From Polyangia bacterium (GTDB lineage: Bacteria; Myxococcota_A; Polyangia; Fen-1088), in contig DATATI010000091.1 of assembly GCA_036268875.1 (NCBI GenBank), forward strand, positions 13,513-77,512: DNA of 64,000 nucleotides. The letters are read 5' to 3'. The position numbers and the translations under genes are program-made. Shown here piece after piece: positions 527-11,504 of this stretch (position 1 is the stretch's first letter; every line of letters begins with the position of its first letter). The notes below the pieces were generated by a model. It did not search any database. It was given only the letters and a program-made list of their open reading frames with translations, and was not told where the DNA came from.

Positions 527-937
527 ATGTCATCGGAGCCGCGGGTTCGAAAGCTGGTGGTGGCGGCGCTGATCCGCGACGGCGGGCGGGTGCTGGTCTC
601 GCGGCGCCGGGCGGATCAGGCGATGCCGCTTTTGTGGGAGTTCCCCGGCGGTAAGGTCGAGCCTGGCGAATCTCCGGAGGTGGCTCTGGTCCGTGAGGTT
701 CGCGAGGAACTGGGCTGCGCCGTGTGCGTCGATCGCATCCACGAGGTGGTCTTTCACCCGTACGCCGAATTCGATCTGCTGATGCTGGTCTATTCGTGCA
801 CGATCACGGGCGGAGTTCCAGCGCCGGTCGAGGTGGCGGAGGTGGCGTGGGTCGAGGCGACGGATTTGCCGACGCTGGATTTGCTGCCAGCGGATTTCCC
901 CCTGGCCCGCGCGCTGGCCGCCGAGCCCCACCGCTGA
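527..937 (+). CDS. NUDIX (MutT-family) hydrolase
   Basis: Nudix box GGKVEPGESPEVALVREVREELG; 136 aa typical size. Confidence 0.85.
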   Translation: MSSEPRVRKLVVAALIRDGGRVLVSRRRADQAMPLLWEFPGGKVEPGESPEVALVREVREELGCAVCVDRIHEVVFHPYAEFDLLMLVYSCTITGGVPAPVEVAEVAWVEATDLPTLDLLPADFPLARALAAEPHR

Positions 938-971: not shown

Positions 972-2528
972 TTATGACGGGGAGTCGGCGGCAGGCGCGG
1001 ACGGGCCGTCTTCGGCAGCGGTCTCGTGCACGGGGGTGGCCAACGCGGCGGCGGGCGCTTCGTGATTGGCTTCGTGGCCGGGCAGGGGAGGGTGGCGCAA
1101 GGCCTCGCGTTGGGCCACGCGGGCGGCTTCGGTCGCGTCGCGCTTGCAGGCGCCACACAGACTGGGTTCGGCCCAGTTGCCAAGATGGGTTTGCAGCTGG
1201 CTCTCGGGCGGCCAGTAGATCGGCGTGCCGCAGGTCTTGCACGGGATCTCGCGGGTCTTTCGATCCTTGAGGAACTCGATGCAGGTCTCGCAGCGACGCT
1301 CGGGCGCGCGGACTTCGCGGCGCCGTTTCTTGTCGCGGCGGCGCGAATTGGCCGAGGCGCGCGGCTGGACGGGCAGGGGCGCGGCGCTGGCGATGGCGAT
1401 CTGTCCTTCGGCCGGCGGCGCATCAGGGGCGGCTGGCGCGCCATTGGACACCGGCTCCGCCGGCGCCGTCGTCTCGACCGGCGGCTCTTTTATTTGCGGC
1501 TTGACCCCGGCGGCTAACTGTTGCGCCTTGGTCCAGGTCCACGTCCCGGTGCAGTGGTCGGTCTTGCAAGCCACCAAGCGATCGTCGAGATCGCCCATCT
1601 CTTTTTCGCACTCTTCGCAGTAGTGCGGATAGGGATCGCCGGTCTTGCCGCGCACCGCGCGGGCCAGCTGGGCGCCGCGCTTGTCGCTCCAGGTGCGTTT
1701 GCAGCCGGAGCGGCGGCAGGGACGGTCGACGTCCTTCAGGCGCGAGTAGATGTCCAGGCAGCTCTGGCACATGCGGTGCGGCGCCTTGGGCGTCGGCTTG
1801 CCGGCGATGCAGGCGTCCAGCTGATCACCGCGCGCCCAGGACCAGGTCTTCTTGCAGCCCGATGTCCGGCAGCGCACGTCGCGATCGGCGATCCCGCCGA
1901 AGACGGTCTTGCACTCGTCGCACATGCGGCGCGGCGGTTCGTTGGGTTTGCCGGCGGCGTAATCCTGAATCTGTTCCTGCGCCGTCCACAGCCATTTGTG
2001 CTTGCAGCCGTTGATGCCGCAGCTGACCTGGCGGTCTTTCAGCTTCTTGAAGACGCCGTCGCAGGGGCCGCACATGGACGCAGGCGGTGTTGGTTCGACG
2101 TCGGGCGCGCCGGCGATGAGCTGCGCTCGCTTGCTGAACAGCGAGGTGCGGGTGCAGCCCTCGACAGAGCAGGGAATCGATTTGTCTTCCAGGGCGCCCA
2201 GTTTTTCCTCGCACGACGCGCACAGCATCGTCGGCGCCGGCCGCTTGGTGGCAAACGCTTCCAGCTGCGCGGGCACGGACCAGGTCCACGTGTGCTCGCA
2301 GCCGGCGCGATCACACTTGCGCTCCAGCGGCGAAAGCTTGGGCAGTTTGTCGCGGCACGAATCGCACATCGCCGACGTCGGGTCCGATGGATCGGGTGCG
2401 TTCCGTCCACCCAGCTTCAGTCCCTTTCCAGACGCAAGCGAGATCCAGGTGCGCGTGCACCCGGACACGGAACACGGAAAGGACTTTGCTCCCAATCGAT
2501 CGGCGAGCGTGAAACCGGCTGAACCCAT
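972..2528 (-). CDS. Tandem zinc-ribbon repeat protein (7 full + 1 terminal repeats of C-x3-GC-x2-[TK]W-x-W ... C-x2-C, ~47 aa each), Pro/Ala linker and basic stretch
   Basis: Longest ORF runs to 2630 but first 34 codons have low GC3 (~62 %); ATG at 2528 (MGSAGF...) preferred; highly regular Cys spacing seen directly in translation. Confidence 0.6.
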   Translation of the reverse strand: MGSAGFTLADRLGAKSFPCSVSGCTRTWISLASGKGLKLGGRNAPDPSDPTSAMCDSCRDKLPKLSPLERKCDRAGCEHTWTWSVPAQLEAFATKRPAPTMLCASCEEKLGALEDKSIPCSVEGCTRTSLFSKRAQLIAGAPDVEPTPPASMCGPCDGVFKKLKDRQVSCGINGCKHKWLWTAQEQIQDYAAGKPNEPPRRMCDECKTVFGGIADRDVRCRTSGCKKTWSWARGDQLDACIAGKPTPKAPHRMCQSCLDIYSRLKDVDRPCRRSGCKRTWSDKRGAQLARAVRGKTGDPYPHYCEECEKEMGDLDDRLVACKTDHCTGTWTWTKAQQLAAGVKPQIKEPPVETTAPAEPVSNGAPAAPDAPPAEGQIAIASAAPLPVQPRASANSRRRDKKRRREVRAPERRCETCIEFLKDRKTREIPCKTCGTPIYWPPESQLQTHLGNWAEPSLCGACKRDATEAARVAQREALRHPPLPGHEANHEAPAAALATPVHETAAEDGPSAPAADSPS

Positions 2529-2644: not shown

Positions 2645-4048
2645 ATGCAAATCACCATCGAAGACATTTCCCCGGTTGAAAAGCGTGTCGAGTTCGAGCT
2701 GCCGTGGACCGACGTGGCTCCCAAGCTGGATAAAGCATACAACGAGTTACGACGCGACGTGCGCCTGCCTGGCTTTCGCCCCGGCAAGGTGCCGCGCAAC
2801 CTGATCGAAAAGATGTACAAGCGCCAGGTCGAGGACGAAGTCGCCCGCGACCTGATTGAACACTCCATCGGCCAGGCCATCACCGAAAAGCAGATCCAGC
2901 CGGTGGCGCCGCCCACCGTCGACAAATTGCAGCTGCAATCGGGGTCGCCGTTCAAATTTTCGGCGCGCGTCGAGGTCCGGTCGCAGGTGGTGCCGACGGA
3001 CTATCTGGGCCTGCCGCTCACCCGCCGCGCACCCAAGGTCACCGACGAAGAGATCACCGAAGCGCTGGAGAGCTACCGCCGCCGCCTGACCGAGTACAAG
3101 CCCGTCGAGGGCCGCACCGAGACCCGCGACACCGACGTGGTGATGGTCGAACTGCACGGCCGGGTCGGCGAACACAAGGTGAAAAACCGCACCATCACCA
3201 TCGACCTTGGGGACGAGACCGGCGGCGGGTTGCCGGGGCTTTCGCAGCGCCTGCGCGGCGTGGCCACCAACGCCGACCACCTGGACGTCAAGTACACCAT
3301 CGCCGACGACGTCCCGCAAAAAGAGCTGGCCGGCAAGGCGGTGTCGTTGCACGTCACCATCAAGGAGACACGCGAAAAGAAGCAGCCGGCGCTGGATGAC
3401 GATCTGGCCAAGGACACCGGGGAGGCCGAGACCCTGTCCGGCCTCAAAGACAAGATCCGCGAGCGCCTGGTCGAGACCGACAAGCAGCGCATCCGCCGCG
3501 AGCTGACCGGCGCCATCGTCAAGGAGCTGATCAAGCGCAACGATTTTCCGGTGGCGCCGGCGCTGATCGACCGCCACGCCCAGGCCATCGTCAACCGCGC
3601 CAAGCAGCAGCTGGCCATGGCGGGGATCGACATGGAAGCGGCCGGCGCCAACCTCGACGACGAGAAGATGCGCGAGCAGTTTCGGGGCGAGGCCGAGGAA
3701 GAAGCGCGTGGCACCATCCTGATCCAGGCCATCGCCGAGCGCGAGGCGATCCTGGTCGGCGACGCCGACATTCAAAAGAGCATCGCCGAGATCGCCGCCG
3801 CCCGGCAGGAGAGCCCGAAGAAACTTCGCGCCGAGTTCGAGCGCGACCACCGCATCCACCAGGTGCGCAGTCAGATCCTGGAGCAGAAGACCCTTGATAT
3901 GCTGATCGCTCAGGCTAAGATCACCGACGAGACTCCACAGGATCCGGACAGCTTGATCGTCAGCCCCACTTCCGAGCGGTTGATCGTGACGCCGGAAGAG
4001 GCGCGGGCCGAGGCCGGAGCCACCGCCAAGAAACGGAAAACACCATGA
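2645..4048 (+). CDS. tig: Trigger factor
   Basis: [22 protein letters not shown]-terminus, 467 aa, FKBP-like middle; precedes clpP with ATGA overlap. Confidence 0.95.
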
Positions 4049-4716
4049 GTGACCGCGACCGCTTCCGCCTCTCTGCCCAGCCGATGATCGACAGCCCGCC
4101 GCCCGCCGTTGGCAACTTCATCATCCCGACCGTCATCGAGCAGACCCACCGGGGCGAGCGTGGCTGGGACATCTTCTCGCGCCTGCTCAAGGACCGGATC
4201 ATCTTCCTCGGCACGGCGGTCGATGATCAGGTGGCGAACATCGTCATCGCCCAGCTTTTGTTTCTGGAGAGTGAAGATCCCGACAAGGATGTGATGCTCT
4301 ACATCAACTCGCCGGGCGGCATGGTCACGGCGGGCATGGCCATCTACGACACCATGCAATATGTGCGGCCCGACGTGGCGACGTTCTGCATGGGCCAGGC
4401 GGCGTCGATGGGCGCCTTCCTGCTGGCGGCCGGCGCCAAGGGCAAGCGCTTCTCGCTGCCGCACGCCCGCATCCTGATCCACCAGCCGCTGGGCGGCTTC
4501 TCGGGTCAGGCGACCGACATCGACATCCACGCCAAGGAAATCTTGCGCACCCGCGACAAGCTGAACGAACTTCTGGTCAAGCACACCGGCCAGTCGATTG
4601 ACCGCATCAAATCAGACACCGAGCGCGATTACTTCATGAGCGCGATGGAGTCGAAAGAGTACGGAATCATCGACGAGGTGCTGGTGCAAAAGCCCTCGAC
4701 GCCGCCGGGCAAGTAA
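4045..4716 (+). CDS. clpP: ATP-dependent Clp protease proteolytic subunit
   Basis: [45 protein letters not shown]; Ser-His-Asp context. Confidence 0.95.
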
Positions 4717-4814
4717 AGCAGTGAACGGGCAGCCAAAGGGGTCGCCGTCGCGTCAGGATCGTGACAAATGTTCGTCCCTGACGTGACGCCTCCTCCTGTG
4801 CTACCTTTTTCCTA

Positions 4815-6092
<1,278 letters not shown>

Positions 6093-6171: not shown

Positions 6172-6194
6172 ATGAAATGACGGGAGGTCAGCCG

Positions 6195-6521
6195 ATGCGT
6201 CGATGGTTTATGTGGATACCGGTGCTGATGGTGGCGTCGCTACTCTTTTGGACCCTGGCCTTGGCCCTGGGCGGAATGTCGCTGATGGCGGCGAACAAGA
6301 TCTCCCTTTTTGACGCCCACTGCCGGTTCGCCTCGCCAGAGGTGTCGGCGGACATCGACGTCGATGGCGCCGGTTCGCACAGCGGCTACGACCCCATCGT
6401 GGTCCACATCGAGGAATCGGGCGACCCGGACGACGTCGACGACCAGGCCACGACGGCCGCAGCCGACGACCCGGATTCGGCCGCGCAGACGTCCTCGCAG
6501 CCGGGCCAGACCGCGTTTTGA
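6195..6521 (+). CDS. Small membrane protein (one N-terminal TM helix, acidic C-terminal tail)
   Basis: ATG at 6195 preceded by GGGAGG (6182-6187); hydrophobic [24 protein letters not shown]; high GC3. Confidence 0.45.
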
Positions 6522-6677: not shown

Positions 6678-9311
6678 ATGTCCGACCGCCCTGACGACCG
6701 ACGCAACCCGCGCCGGATGCCGCTTCTGCCCCTGCGTGACATCGTGGTTTTTCCCCACATGGTGGTGCCGCTGTTCGTGGGCCGGGAAAAATCAATCAGC
6801 GCCCTGGAAGAGGCCACCGGCAAAGGTGGTTATAAAGAGATCTTCCTCAGCGCCCAGCGCAAAGCCAAGACCAACGAGCCGGTGCCGGACGACATCTTCA
6901 CCATCGGCACCGTCGGCACGATCATCCAACTTTTGCGCCTGCCCGACGGCACGGTGAAAGTTCTGGTCGAAGGCAAGCGGCGCGCGTCGATCAAGCGGTT
7001 CACCCAGACCGAAGGTTTCTTTACCGTCGAGATCGAGGAGATGCCCGACGTGGCCGAGAAATCGGTCGAGCTGGACGCATTGATCCGCGAGGTGCACGCC
7101 ACCTTCGAATCGTACGTAAAGCTGAACAAGCGCATCGCTCCGGAGATCTTGATCTCGGTGCAGACCATCGAAGATCCCGGGCAGCTGGCCGACACTATGG
7201 TCGGGCAGCTGCAGCTGAAGCTCGGCGACAAGCAATCCATCCTGGAGATGGACACGCCGTCAAAGCGCCTGTCTCGGCTTTACGAGCTGATGAAGGCGGA
7301 GATCGAGATCTTGCAGGTTGAGCGGAAGATCCGGACCCGCGTCAAAAAGCAGATGGAGAAGACGCAGAAAGAGTACTACCTCAACGAACAGATGCAGGCG
7401 ATCCAGAAGGAGCTCGGAGATCGCGACGAGTTCAAGAACGAGCTGACCGAGCTGGAAGACCGAGCCAAGCAGAAGAACCTGTCGAAAGAAGCGCAAGCCA
7501 AGGTCAAAAAAGAGCTGAAAAAGCTGCGCATGATGGCCCCGCTGTCGGCCGAGGCGGCGGTGGTGCGCAACTACGTCGACTGGGTGCTGGGCCTGCCCTG
7601 GGGTGAAAAGAGCGAGGAGAAACTGGACGTCGTCGAGGCGGAACGGATCCTGGACCAAGACCACTACGGCTTGAAGAAGGTCAAGGAGCGCATCCTTGAG
7701 TACCTGGCCGTGCAAGCATTGGTGAAGAAGCTCAAAGGACCGATCCTGTGCTTGGTCGGCCCGCCCGGCGTGGGCAAGACCTCGCTGGCGCGATCGATTG
7801 CCCATTCGACCGGACGCAACTTCGTGCGGCTTTCTTTGGGCGGCGTGCGCGACGAGGCGGAGATCCGCGGCCACCGCCGCACATACATCGGCGCGTTGCC
7901 GGGCAAGATCATCCAGTCGTTGAAGAAGGCCGGCACGCAGAACCCGGTCTTTCTGCTGGACGAGGTGGACAAGATGTCCACCGACTTTCGCGGCGACCCG
8001 TCGGCGGCGCTGCTGGAGGTGCTGGACCCCGAACAAAACGCCACCTTCAACGACCACTATCTGGATCTCGACTACGACCTTTCCGACGTGATGTTCATAA
8101 CCACGGCGAATTACCTGCAGGGCATCCCCATCCCGCTGCAGGACCGCATGGAGATCATCCAGCTGCCCGGCTACACCGAGTTCGAAAAGGTCTCCATCGC
8201 CGAGAAATATCTGATCCCGAAGCAAAAACGCGACAACGGGATCGACGCCGTGACGGTGGATTTTCTCGAGGACACCGTTCGCGACGTCATCCACTACTAC
8301 ACGAAAGAAGCGGGCGTGCGGAGCCTGGAGCGAGAGATCGCGACAGTGTGTCGCAAGATCGCCCGCGACGTGGTGGCGAAGAAAGTGGTGCCCGGTGCTG
8401 CCGCCGCCGCCCCGGGGGCCAGTGCCGGCAGCGTCGACGTGAAGATCAGCCCCAAGCGCCTGCCCCGTTACCTGGGCCCGCACCGATACCGGTACGGAAA
8501 ACAGGAAGGTGAGGACGAGATCGGGCTCGTCAATGGGCTGGCCGTCACCATGTACGGCGGCGATCTGCTGGCCACGGAGGTTTCGATCGTCGCCGGCAAG
8601 GGCAAGCTGGTCTTGACAGGCAAGCTGGGCGACGTGATGCAGGAGTCAGCGCAGGCGGCGCTGAGCTATGTGCGTTCGCGCGGCCCGTCGCTGGGGCTCG
8701 ATCGCGACTTTTACAACCGCGCTGACATCCACGTGCACCTGCCGGAAGGCGCCATTCCCAAGGACGGACCGTCGGCGGGGATCACCATGTGCACCGGCGT
8801 GGTGTCGGCCCTCTTGCGCGTGCCGGTCAGACGCAACGTGGCCATGACCGGCGAGATCACCCTGCGCGGGCGGGTGCTGGCCATCGGCGGTCTGAAAGAA
8901 AAGATCTTGGCCGCGCATCGATCGGGGATCACCACGGTGATCATGCCGAAGGAGAACGCCAAGGACTTGCGCGACATCCCCAAGCGCGTCCTGAAGGCGC
9001 TGCGCCTGGTGCCGGTCGAGCACATGGACGAGGTGCTGCGCGTGGCGCTGGTGTTGCCGAACCCGAGCGAGTTCCTGAAGGAGCGTTCGGTGGCCGTCGA
9101 CTGGCGGCAGCCGATCGAACGACGCGAACGAGAGCGCGAGCGGCGCGACGAATCGGCCAAGTTCCCGGTGGCCAGCGCGGTTCCGCCACCCGGCGTCAGC
9201 GACGAGCGGCCGGCCACGGAAGATGGCGAAAAGCCGGACGACAGCGATCGCCCGCGGCCGACTGATCCAGCGGGTTATCCGTTCCCGCAGCCGGCCATCC
9301 GCGAAGAGTAG
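6678..9311 (+). CDS. lon: ATP-dependent protease Lon (LonA) with ~90-aa low-complexity RE-rich C-terminal tail
   Basis: [24 protein letters not shown]-domain, Walker [10 protein letters not shown], catalytic PKDGPSAG; GAGGA SD 7 nt before ATG 6678 (longer ORF from 6636 rejected). Confidence 0.95.
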
Positions 9312-9328
9312 GGCGGACCCGGGCGCCG

Positions 9329-9865
9329 TCAATCGCCGGGCGGCTTCGTTGCGGCCGCGGCCGGCGGCGTGAGCATCGCGCGCAGCCAGCGGCCGAGGCG
9401 CGCCTGATAGCCGGGGCCCCACCCGCGGTTGATGTGGCGGACGATCCCGCCGGCGTCGATCAGGAACGTGGTGGGGAAGCGTTCTTGTCCCCAGCGCTGG
9501 GCGTTGGCGCCCGTACGGTCGAGGACCACCCGCGCGCCTTTCGGCAGATTGGCGCTGGCGAGAAAATGTCGGACCACTGCTGAGTCCTCACTGACGTCGA
9601 CGAACAACAGGGTCACGGCCTCGCCGAAGGTCGCGCTCAGCGCCGTCAGATCGTGGTGTGCGCGCTGGCAAGGCCCGCACCAGGTGGTGAAGAAATCGAC
9701 CACCGTGAGCCTGCCGGCGAATACCGGCGCGGGTGTCGCTCGCCCGTCGGGGTCGTCGACCGCCAGCGCCGGCGCCGGGTCGCCGAGCACCGGCGGCGGC
9801 GACGCCAACCCTTGCGCCAGCAGCGCCAGCAACGGAACCGCCGCGGCGGGTACACCAACCAGCAT
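9329..9865 (-). CDS. Secreted TlpA/ResA-like thiol-disulfide oxidoreductase (thioredoxin fold)
   Basis: WCGPC active site, N-terminal signal peptide. Confidence 0.75.
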   Translation of the reverse strand: MLVGVPAAAVPLLALLAQGLASPPPVLGDPAPALAVDDPDGRATPAPVFAGRLTVVDFFTTWCGPCQRAHHDLTALSATFGEAVTLLFVDVSEDSAVVRHFLASANLPKGARVVLDRTGANAQRWGQERFPTTFLIDAGGIVRHINRGWGPGYQARLGRWLRAMLTPPAAAATKPPGD

Positions 9866-9868
9866 GGT

Positions 9869-10642
9869 TCAGCGACGGTACAAGTAGCGTTGGTTGCGCA
9901 GCGCGGTCCGTTCAATCATCAGTTCGGGTTTGGTGAACAGCCGCACCAGCAGAAAGCCGGTCAGAAAACCACCGATGTGCGCGAAGACGGCTACGCCTGC
10001 CGAGATGTTCGGCCGCACCGACGAAAGCTCCGGCAGCCCGGTCACCACTTGCAACCCGAACCACCAGAGCAGCATCGCCCACGCCGGCACCTTGATCACC
10101 CGAATGAAGATGATGAAGATAAAAAGGACGTTCACCTTCACGCGCGGGTACAGCATCAGATAGGCGCCCAGCACGCCGGCGATGGCGCCCGACGCCCCCA
10201 CGATCGGCACCGGCGACGCCGGGCTCACCATCACTTGCGCCGCCGCCGCGCCGAGACCACACAAAAGGTAGAAGAAGGCAAAGCGCAGGCGGCCCATGCT
10301 GTCCTCGACGTTGTTGCCGAAGACCCAGAGGAAGAGGCCGTTGCCCAGGATGTGTCCCCAGCCGGCGTGCAGGAACATCGACGTCAACGGCGTCAGGTAG
10401 TTGATCGGATCGCGATCGACGATGCAGGCCATCCCGTTGCCCAGGGGAACGGCCGTGCCCAGCGCGGCGCGCCCGGTGATTTCGCCCGGCACCAGGCCCA
10501 GGTTGCAGACCATCATCGAGACTCGGTTGGGGTCCAGGCCGGCGCCTTCGCCGAAAACCCAGGCCGCACCCATCAGCAGCAGGATCGCAATGGTCACCAC
10601 CGGCGTGCGCAGGGTCGGGTTATCGTCGCTGATGGGGATCAT
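9869..10642 (-). CDS. Rhomboid-family intramembrane serine protease
   Basis: GASGAIAG (GxSG) and HxxxN motifs, 6 TM; start moved to ATG 10642 (MIPISDD, AAGGA SD) because the longer ORF to 10858 runs across the tRNA-Ser gene. Confidence 0.8.
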   Translation of the reverse strand: MIPISDDNPTLRTPVVTIAILLLMGAAWVFGEGAGLDPNRVSMMVCNLGLVPGEITGRAALGTAVPLGNGMACIVDRDPINYLTPLTSMFLHAGWGHILGNGLFLWVFGNNVEDSMGRLRFAFFYLLCGLGAAAAQVMVSPASPVPIVGASGAIAGVLGAYLMLYPRVKVNVLFIFIIFIRVIKVPAWAMLLWWFGLQVVTGLPELSSVRPNISAGVAVFAHIGGFLTGFLLVRLFTKPELMIERTALRNQRYLYRR

Positions 10643-10928: not shown

Positions 10929-11504
10929 GTGCCCATCGTGTTCTCGTCGCGAGTGCGGAGGACGGCGATAATCGTCGCTCTGGTGCTGGTGTCGGGGTGG
11001 AGTGAACTGGCGCACGCGCAGCGGGTGTGGGACACCGACCTCGGGGCCTATCTTTCGTATGACTTCGGCGGGCGGCGACCGGGCCACTTCGGTTTCGGGA
11101 TCGAGGTGCGCGAGATGTACTCGTATCATCGATTCAACTGCGGGACGCACGCCTATTGGTATGGGGGCGTTGCCACGCGCCTGGCGATGCTGGGATGGGA
11201 CCAGTTCCGGGTGCTCGTCGCACCGCAGTTTGGGCTGACCGGTTCCCTTCCGTATCCTTACCCTCCTGCGACCGCTTCCGCCGGCGGCGAACTAGGCCTT
11301 GGATACCGCTTCATGCGTGATCCCGGCCGGTTTCTGCAGCCGGGGATCGAGGTGAACTTCGCGAACGTGCCATTTCTCAGGGTCGACCACTCGTTCGGTC
11401 GCGAAAGCGGGACGCAAAGCTTCATTCATTCCGGGTCGATGGATCTTGGCGCGCGTCTGGCGCCCACGGGCACCCATGGGCTTTCGGGAAGCAGCTGCGA
11501 TTGA
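10929..11504 (+). CDS. Secreted Tyr/Gly-rich hypothetical protein (GTG start, signal peptide ending AHA)
   Basis: GGAAGG SD 8 nt upstream of GTG 10929; upstream part of the track ORF is translated tRNA. Confidence 0.4.
   Translation: MPIVFSSRVRRTAIIVALVLVSGWSELAHAQRVWDTDLGAYLSYDFGGRRPGHFGFGIEVREMYSYHRFNCGTHAYWYGGVATRLAMLGWDQFRVLVAPQFGLTGSLPYPYPPATASAGGELGLGYRFMRDPGRFLQPGIEVNFANVPFLRVDHSFGRESGTQSFIHSGSMDLGARLAPTGTHGLSGSSCD

Follow-up and report, generated by a model that had tools for sequence, protein, structure and literature searches.

The window analysed here is the whole 64,000-nucleotide stretch of contig DATATI010000091.1 from a Polyangia bacterium (G+C content, 67.8%), and the element under study is a gene on its minus strand, spanning positions 972 to 2528, whose product is referred to below as the zinc protein. 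This 518-amino acid (aa) protein carries eight consecutive modules with two cysteine pairs each, and its 32 Cys residues predict, at the sequence level, eight Zn(Cys)4 sites per chain. Judged from structural models, the modules are treble-clef-like rather than classical zinc ribbons, and the eight of them are most likely joined into a single, rather stiff array stapled by zinc, as opposed to separate beads on a string. The reading that we favour, at somewhat less than even confidence, is that of a cytoplasmic, non-enzymatic docking or scaffold array for an extended and conserved partner.

According to the list of open reading frames (ORFs) and its translations, the coding sequence starts with an ATG at 2528 and ends with a stop codon at 972–974. 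A longer ORF of 552 aa, with an ATG at 2630, was also available. However, the N-terminus MGSxGFTLADRLGAKS is kept in the full-length proteins in an alignment of 33 homologs and maps to the ATG at 2528, which is therefore the true start; the 552-aa version was rejected because the homologs begin at the residue encoded at 2528. The ORF coordinates and strand given in the original prediction, which had been made from the DNA letters without database searches, were thus correct. At least 366 homologs of the zinc protein were recovered at E ≤ 1e-3, the closest of which (94% identity) belongs to a metagenome-assembled 'Polyangia bacterium' genome. A profile scan of the window ORFs found the repeat in no other of them. 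Two terminator-like matches on the plus strand inside the gene (1465–1485 and 1578–1594) are attributable to chance, as 2.0 were expected.

Eight cysteine modules and their predicted fold

A control hidden Markov model (HMM) was built from 15 repeats, all taken from other clades and none from the window protein. On the window protein it gave a total of 266 bits, compared with a maximum of 6.9 bits among 200 shuffles of the same protein, and it matched nine stretches: R1 (aa 15–67), R2 (69–115), R3 (116–165), R4 (166–209), R5 (216–266), R6 (269–316), R7a (319–350), R7b (401–421) and R8 (426–467). Module borders were set by cutting the protein ahead of each C-x4-C. There are eight first knuckles, with C-x4-C at Cys19, 72, 120, 170, 220, 271 and 321 and C-x2-C at Cys430, and eight second knuckles, all C-x2-C, at Cys55, 103, 153, 203, 254, 304, 413 and 458. 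In module 7, a Pro/Ala linker and a basic patch separate the first helix from the CxxC (CETC), which follows the patch, 86 residues from the first knuckle of the same module. In compact homologs (~400 aa) module 7 is uninterrupted, and the linker is therefore an insertion in the module 7 loop rather than a spacer ahead of a separate last finger. The features of the gene product, from N- to C-terminus, are as follows.

2487–2528, minus strand: N-terminal cap, aa 1–14 (MGSAGFTLADRLGA); F-x-x-L-x-D-x-L conserved across clades; helix at aa 8–11 in the models.
2328–2486, minus strand: module 1, aa 15–67, C19-x4-C24 and C55-x2-C58; HMM 26.3 bits; Cys invariant in 91 sequences.
2184–2327, minus strand: module 2, aa 68–115, C72-x4-C77 and C103-x2-C106; HMM 45.1 bits.
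2034–2183, minus strand: module 3, aa 116–165, C120-x4-C125 and C153-x2-C156, Trp pair lost (TSLF); HMM 38.2 bits.
1884–2033, minus strand: module 4, aa 166–215, C170-x4-C175 and C203-x2-C206; HMM 51.6 bits.
1731–1883, minus strand: module 5, aa 216–266, C220-x4-C225 and C254-x2-C257; HMM 53.5 bits.
1581–1730, minus strand: module 6, aa 267–316, C271-x4-C276 and C304-x2-C307, with KRTWxDKRGAQLARAVRGK; HMM 43.6 bits.
1494–1580, minus strand: module 7, first half, aa 317–345, C321-x4-C326, TWTW and the QL helix; HMM profile positions 3–34.
1344–1493, minus strand: Pro/Ala-rich insertion in the module 7 loop, aa 346–395; predicted local distance difference test (pLDDT) 30–60; conservation 0.33; absent from the compact and SGNH-fused forms.
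1314–1343, minus strand: polybasic patch RRRDKKRRRE, aa 396–405; RRxRKRRRE conserved within Polyangia.
1254–1304, minus strand: module 7, second half, aa 409–425 (PERRCETCIEFLKDRKT), C413-x2-C416 at the start of a helix (aa 414–422); HMM profile positions 26–46.
1113–1253, minus strand: module 8, aa 426–472, C430-x2-C433 and C458-x2-C461, of the zf_Tbcl type according to ortholog PF13451 matches and hhalign.
975–1112, minus strand: C-terminal tail, aa 473–518, comprising the end of a long helix (aa 459–478) and then a disordered, acidic Pro/Ala region; pLDDT <50 after ~aa 490; conservation 0.44.

The original prediction had described 7.5 tandem repeats. The regular cysteine repeat was fully borne out by the HMM, but the count is eight, with the linker and the patch lying inside repeat 7. 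Likewise, the repeated Cys pairs of the motif it proposed stood, although the W-x-W said to follow the first pair is missing from R1 (TWIS), R3 (TSLF) and R6 (TWSD), and a gap of ~25 aa to the second pair does not hold for repeat 7. The basic stretch RRRDKKRRRE that it had pointed out was found, and it lies within the module 7 loop. In the repeat profile search, nearly all full-length family members showed 7–9 matched stretches, and the eight-module layout is fixed across lineages. Long disordered insertions, often acidic with a polybasic end (e.g., KRRRRRGRRRGE in locus L168), were observed in the loop before the second CxxC in other loci and proteins (L168, 3899–5300; L141, ~3850–5317; P0300, P0141 and P0127). 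They hit module 3, 5 or 6, as opposed to module 7 in the window protein, which makes this loop a recurrent insertion site.

Two AlphaFold models were obtained, one with 33 close homologs (pLDDT 73.8) and one with 91 sequences from three clades (pLDDT 85.7, with 93–97 in the modules, and a predicted template modelling score, pTM, of 0.52). The linker (~aa 346–400) and the tail (from ~aa 480), ~20% of the protein, are disordered in the model. The predicted layout is common to all modules: the first Cys pair lies between two strands, a short helix and a loop come next, and a second helix starts at the second Cys pair, as with C55/C58 (helix 56–64) and C413/C416 (helix 414–422). Three residues after the second helix, the first strand of the next module begins.

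In a treble clef, two zinc ligands come from a zinc knuckle in a β-hairpin and two from the N-terminal turn of an α-helix, and a primary β-hairpin lies between knuckle and helix (PMC4999995). The predicted secondary structure places the ligands in this manner in all modules. The primary β-hairpin between knuckle and helix does not appear in the models, where a short helix and a Pro-rich loop occupy its place; the modules are termed treble-clef-like because the ligand geometry matches while helix and loop replace this hairpin. In a classical zinc ribbon, β-hairpin knuckles of a three-stranded sheet supply both ligand pairs. The label of zinc ribbon, used in the original prediction, does not fit, since the second CxxC lies at the N-terminus of an α-helix in all eight modules and no zinc-ribbon Pfam family was significant.

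Each module is predicted to bind one structural zinc through its two Cys pairs. We take the module as the zinc unit because the arrays of family members open on a first knuckle and close on a second one, and because the Pfam family PF13451 (see below) spans module 8 from its first to its second knuckle. The alternative pairing, of the second knuckle of one module with the first knuckle of the next, was rejected on the same two grounds and because the last repeat of protein P0223 ends in C-x2-H. The stiffness proposed for the array is based on the short connections between modules, the placement of the loops inside modules, the helix of the N-terminal cap, and a pTM of 0.52 despite ~20% disorder. 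The short helix of this cap appears to mimic the 'L-x-D-x3-P-C' end of a preceding module, which suggests a capping role.

The original prediction had allowed that the repeat might match an already well-characterised family. No meaningful match of the whole protein was found in Pfam, NCBIfam, PADLOC or PDB sequences, and no catalytic family in the first three matched the array itself. Among the orthologs, module 8 of the Lentisphaerota-type proteins P0299 (30.5 bits) and P0303 (25.6 bits) passes the cut-off (24 bits) of PF13451, zf_Tbcl, described as a 'probable treble clef domain', and two more orthologs lie just under it. The window protein as a whole has no PF13451 match of ≥24 bits, its own module 8 being below the threshold. 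Furthermore, zf_Tbcl was the commonest weak Pfam match among 48 single repeats, with seven sub-threshold matches (best E 0.003), which are probably the seven repeat-8 sequences. The layout of zf_Tbcl, two CxxC pairs within ~45 residues, is present in window module 8, whereas in modules 1–7 the first pair is C-x4-C. When the profiles of module 8 and of modules 1–7 were compared with hhalign, they aligned over 39 columns (E 4.7e-5, probability 68%). A search with a 47-residue module-8 profile, in which just five candidates were scored, returned four fragments of the same family. In our literature searches, no paper was found on PF13451, zf-trcl, zf_Tbcl or IPR025306, and nothing on the eight-module family among work on bacterial tandem treble-clef fingers.

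Conservation, distribution and proposed function of the array

None of the 32 knuckle Cys varies among 11 compact homologs, and across 91 sequences of three clades, 26–79% identical to the window protein, they vary little or not at all; the exception is C106 of module 2, replaced by Asp in some Polyangia homologs. Conservation extends beyond the ligands. In each module a Gln, usually within Q-L, opens the first helix, and most modules have a Trp after the first knuckle; many also show P-P-x-R-M ahead of the second knuckle and L-x-D at the module end. Moreover, modules are closer to the orthologous module of other species than to their own neighbours in the chain (e.g., module 6). Within Polyangia, the mean frequency of the top residue is highest in module 6 (0.89), followed by module 8 (0.86) and the first half of module 7 (0.84), and amounts to 0.72 in the basic patch and 0.33 in the linker.

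Eight predicted zinc sites per chain could also suggest a zinc store or buffer, a metallothionein-like sponge. Such a role is highly improbable: the protein would carry no more than about one Zn per 50–65 residues, its predicted fold is highly ordered, non-ligand residues and the individuality of the modules are conserved, members are fused to enzyme-like domains, and the neighbourhoods examined showed neither Zur-type nor zinc-uptake genes.

The repeat profile was used to search 1.84 billion representative proteins (E ≤ 1e-3, clusters at 50% identity), and the family proved rare, with 185 clusters. A repeat search of the kind that the original prediction had proposed thus bears out the unusual regularity that it had noticed. 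No member carries a functional name, and the fused forms are automatically labelled after their SGNH-like domain. Three forms were distinguished. The Polyangia form (460–640 aa) has the module 7 insertion and was confirmed in 92 stretches of GTDB species-representative genomes, of which 80 loci were kept; its hosts, labelled 'Polyangia', 'Myxococcales' or 'Deltaproteobacteria', are all uncultured and were sampled in soil, fen and similar settings. The compact form (400–450 aa) occurs in 'Deltaproteobacteria bacterium' assembled genomes and in metagenomes. The fused form (620–780 aa) occurs in Lentisphaeria and Victivallales assembled genomes and consists of eight modules followed by an SGNH/GDSL-like domain (PF13472 or PF00657). 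This is the commonest fusion partner, present in dozens of clusters (e.g., P0137, P0275, P0282, P0299 and P0300). The window protein has no C-terminal PF13472 or PF00657 domain and ends in its disordered tail. Fused SGNH-like domains were also observed to match Pfam 'NonGDSL' (P0137, P0282, P0299, P0300, P0303, P0130, and L087 at 8001–10232). The sole helicase fusion seen is P0223 (1769 aa), with five or six N-terminal modules, TPR repeats and a DEAD/Helicase_C region.

Several other apparent architectures were discarded. The fusion to NAD synthetase in L168 is an ORF-calling artefact, as the translation shows a stop after the array; the 590-aa N-terminal extension in L141 is a wrong-frame GC-rich ORF ahead of the true start; and P0205, P0251, P0260 and P0263, being wrong-frame gene calls over orthologs, were set aside. 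Such products, probably derived from frameshifted assemblies, are rich in Arg, Ala and Pro with islands of true sequence, and they inflate the apparent diversity of the family. One assembled genome (fen_1138) held two copies of the gene on different contigs (L049 and L051); the L051 copy has no tig, clp or NUDIX match on its 6.7-kb contig, and the double copy could be a paralog or a strain mix in the bin.

The docking or scaffold reading is preferred because the array is devoid of a catalytic signature, is strongly constrained, has a fixed length, and is fused elsewhere to other domains. In the mechanism that we infer, from zinc binding and array rigidity to the docking function and the nature of the partner, each module would present a β-hairpin with the first Cys pair, then a short helix opened by Gln-Leu, a Pro-rich loop of variable length, and the second Cys pair at the start of the second helix. 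The two pairs would hold one structural zinc, giving eight Zn(Cys)4 centres per chain; the modules would be joined as a continuous stiff array, capped by the N-terminal helix that mimics a preceding module, and this array would offer the docking or scaffold surface for an extended, conserved partner. In Polyangia, the basic patch may hold the array electrostatically to a polyanion, which could be nucleic acid or an acidic membrane lipid, and in other lineages the array would deliver the attached domain, SGNH-like in Lentisphaerota and a DEAD-type helicase in one protein.

Several observations weigh against this proposal. Cysteine pairing and inter-module geometry are deduced entirely from secondary structure, domain boundaries and pTM. 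The residues common to all modules (Arg-x-x-Gln-Leu and Pro-Pro-x-Arg-Met-Cys) may be purely structural. By eye, the SGNH-like domains appear to have G-D-[ED] at the position of the GDS nucleophilic Ser (CIGDELTLS, LGDDLVCS), and the Lentisphaerota domain may be inactive or use another nucleophile. Finally, the gene neighbourhoods described below differ by lineage (tig-clpPX, OmpA-NUDIX and cdsA), and the context therefore gives no single theme.

A partner of a particular kind is considered in the possible, though rather unlikely, case of a nucleic-acid-binding multi-finger protein, in which eight fingers would wrap DNA or RNA while the polybasic patch adds backbone contacts. The patch is conserved in the Polyangia clade, and lineages such as those of L168 and L141 carry comparable basic insertions in different loops; nevertheless, the patch itself is confined to one clade. 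Similarly, the arrays of all 25 members examined have a positive net formal charge (+3 to +33), but about -16 from eight Zn(Cys)4 centres would offset it, leaving the window protein roughly neutral and the Lentisphaerota forms negative, and many basic residues adjoin knuckles, where they would balance the charge of the thiolates. With a fixed number of fingers, each conserved in its own right, the family follows the pattern of TFIIIA, and the first knuckle, C-x3-G-C-x3-[WFY], resembles those of TFIIIA-type C2H2 fingers. The best Foldseek matches of both models in the PDB were the arrays of CTCF, TFIIIA and ZFP568; however, none was significant (E 0.09–0.7, probability ≤0.06). One relative, P0223, is fused to a helicase, but no helix-turn-helix or other nucleic-acid domain co-occurs apart from it, and the main fusion is SGNH-like and, as with several of the neighbouring genes, points to envelope or lipid.

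Gene neighbourhoods and the intergenic region shared with tig

The features flanking the zinc protein gene in the window are the following.

2645–4048, plus strand: tig (trigger factor), divergent from the zinc protein gene and followed by clpP, clpX, a 114-aa ORF and lon (Pfam assignments).
527–937, plus strand: gene for a MutT-like NUDIX hydrolase, convergent with the zinc protein gene (NCBIfam matches below cut-offs).
2529–2644, no strand assigned: spacer of 116 bp between tig and the zinc protein gene, with blocks conserved in ~50 loci and a predicted RNA fold (z = -2.3).

The divergent arrangement with tig, already noted in the original prediction, recurs widely: the zinc protein gene is divergent from tig-clpP-clpX in 81 of the 83 Polyangia loci compared. 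Within this group, the identity of the zinc protein tracks that of trigger factor (43–94% vs 53–98%), and the zinc protein therefore behaves as a core, single-copy gene. In these uncultured soil and peat Polyangia, the fixed eight-module Cys4 array is conserved about as well as trigger factor. The link to tig was absent from the loci of other lineages examined, and a family-wide functional link to trigger factor was rejected, as the association is universal in Polyangia and absent elsewhere. A small ORF without a Pfam match (114–131 aa) was observed between clpX and lon in the window (6177–6521, plus strand), with counterparts at the equivalent place behind clpX in L001 (4087–4455) and L002 (3901–4281); the next gene in L001 also lacks a Pfam match.

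The only neighbour common to two phyla is the NUDIX gene. Its matches in NCBIfam (MutT, NudG and PRK08999) are all under the cut-offs. In most Polyangia loci it is convergent and immediately downstream, and in ~22 Lentisphaerota-type loci a gene for the zinc-finger–SGNH fusion, one for an OmpA/Pal-like lipoprotein and the NUDIX gene lie in that order on one strand. The NUDIX proteins of the two groups are 34% identical. Lentisphaerota-type examples are found at 10992–11564 in L087 and 10829–11302 in L089, with ~20 more in L091–L120, and in L089 the stop of the OmpA/Pal-like gene and the NUDIX start share one base. The most divergent lineage shows a third conserved neighbourhood: in seven of its loci (L161, L163, L164, L165, L166, L168 and L169), cdsA, encoding phosphatidate cytidylyltransferase, lies immediately upstream on the same strand. 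A nucleotide pyrophosphatase of the MutT type adjoining the gene in two phyla would suit the nucleic-acid-binding protein considered above, whereas the OmpA/Pal-like and cdsA neighbours, being envelope and lipid genes, would not. Taken together, these contexts point to core-genome positions rather than to one pathway.

The proteostasis genes bear on another proposal, a thiol-zinc redox switch or stress holdase. Attack by oxidants on the 32 thiolates would then free the zinc, and the protein, once unfolded, would serve as a signal of oxidative or proteotoxic stress or as a buffer against it. Hsp33, DnaJ and RsrA are precedents for this behaviour. The 32 conserved Cys in Zn(Cys)4-type motifs would provide the targets; the promoter region shared divergently with tig-clpP-clpX-lon in 81 of 83 Polyangia loci would provide the setting; and the recurrent MutT-like neighbour would fit as well, given that MutT enzymes clear oxidised nucleotides. 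However, the tig-clp link is absent outside Polyangia, the NUDIX protein scores below every NCBIfam cut-off, and no similarity was found to the zinc motifs of Hsp33, DnaJ or anti-sigma factors, with Hsp33 reaching only E 2.7 in Foldseek. Furthermore, the strict eight-module fold and the conserved non-Cys surface residues exceed the needs of a redox sensor. We consider a redox function improbable; if it were correct, the zinc protein would be an added player in the myxobacterial tig-clp-lon neighbourhood.

The spacer itself contains the 6-bp hairpin reported in the original prediction, CTCCCA (2593–2598) pairing with TGGGAG (2606–2611), which lies inside a longer imperfect inverted repeat formed by CCCCCGC (2560–2566) and GCGGGGG (2611–2617). 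The fold of the 116-nt spacer is marginally better than that of shuffled sequences (z = -2.3 on both strands). Conserved blocks in ~50 Polyangia loci include GGTAGAC near the tig start, a central CTTGC, and, before the zinc protein start, CTTGCCC...GGCGGGGG...GGTCAGCATA. A consensus scan detected no canonical sigma-70 site in the spacer; the promoter-like form present is TTGC(C/T)(C/T), followed by ~17 nt with GCGGGGG and then TAGACA or CAGCAT. The intergenic region would thus hold a back-to-back pair of promoters, both with a G-rich spacer of similar sequence and a very short leader, and the hairpin is better read as part of them than as a regulatory RNA or DNA structure, the C5/G5 inverted repeat arising because the spacers of the two putative promoters are alike. 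This similarity hints at co-regulation of tig and the zinc protein gene, which would also be in line with the redox proposal.

Comparison with known zinc-binding systems

Like Hsp33, the Cys-rich domain of DnaJ and the N-terminal zinc domain of ClpX, the zinc protein combines predicted Zn(Cys)4 centres with a tie to cytoplasmic proteostasis, as its gene stands beside tig, clpP, clpX and lon. Unlike them, it shows no sequence or fold match to these domains, and it has its proteostasis neighbours in Polyangia alone. Among bacterial proteins, Zn(Cys)4 modules in series have a precedent in the C-terminal domain of topoisomerase I, whose tandem Cys4 zinc ribbons (zf-C4_Topoisom) bind single-stranded DNA and a protein partner. 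The zinc protein differs in giving no Pfam match to that family, in which three to five true ribbons, each with two hairpin knuckles, are joined to an enzyme core.

FYVE and RING fingers share the treble-clef ligand geometry, and ortholog P0314 even passes the Pfam FYVE model over modules 7–8 (43.2 vs 27.8 bits), with weaker FYVE matches in P0137 and P0275. This match, however, reflects how the Cys are spaced where modules 7 and 8 meet, and the RRHHCR lipid-binding motif of FYVE is absent by eye; in addition, domain boundaries suggest that the zinc sites are sequential, one per module, rather than cross-braced as in FYVE and RING. PF13451 is the one link to a known family: module 8 has the same C-x2-C, aromatic residue, ~25 residues and C-x2-C within ~45 residues. 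Nevertheless, modules 1–7 escape the model, and a fixed eight-module array lies outside the definition of that family, which is itself uncharacterised. The eight-module family, for which there is neither a family-level Pfam model nor a solved lookalike structure, merits a domain model of its own.

Long tandem zinc-finger arrays are a hallmark of eukaryotic regulators and, to our knowledge, rare in bacteria. The zinc protein resembles TFIIIA, CTCF and ZFP568 in its row of small zinc modules, each with a β-hairpin knuckle and then a helix, and it resembles TFIIIA, with its nine fingers wrapping along nucleic acid, in the fixed number and individual conservation of its fingers. It is no C2H2 protein: no His is conserved, all ligands are Cys, and the TFIIIA_zf-C2H2 model reached only E 0.083 in one repeat. 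Apart from being bacterial, it departs from the eukaryotic arrays in using Cys4 instead of Cys2His2, in having ~50 residues and two helices per module instead of ~28 and one, in taking the second ligand pair from a separate helix, and in lacking a flexible linker of the TGEKP type. It is an unlikely, speculative prospect that the family represents a bacterial counterpart of eukaryotic poly-zinc-finger proteins, in which eight Cys4 fingers, as one rigid array, would recognise an extended target, be it nucleic acid or another polymer. An array that bound a defined polymer would provide a new scaffold for recognition and could be considered for engineering; and if the counterpart idea were true, each finger would offer one equivalent surface, in a modular scaffold that arose independently of C2H2 fingers and was held at eight units in at least two phyla.

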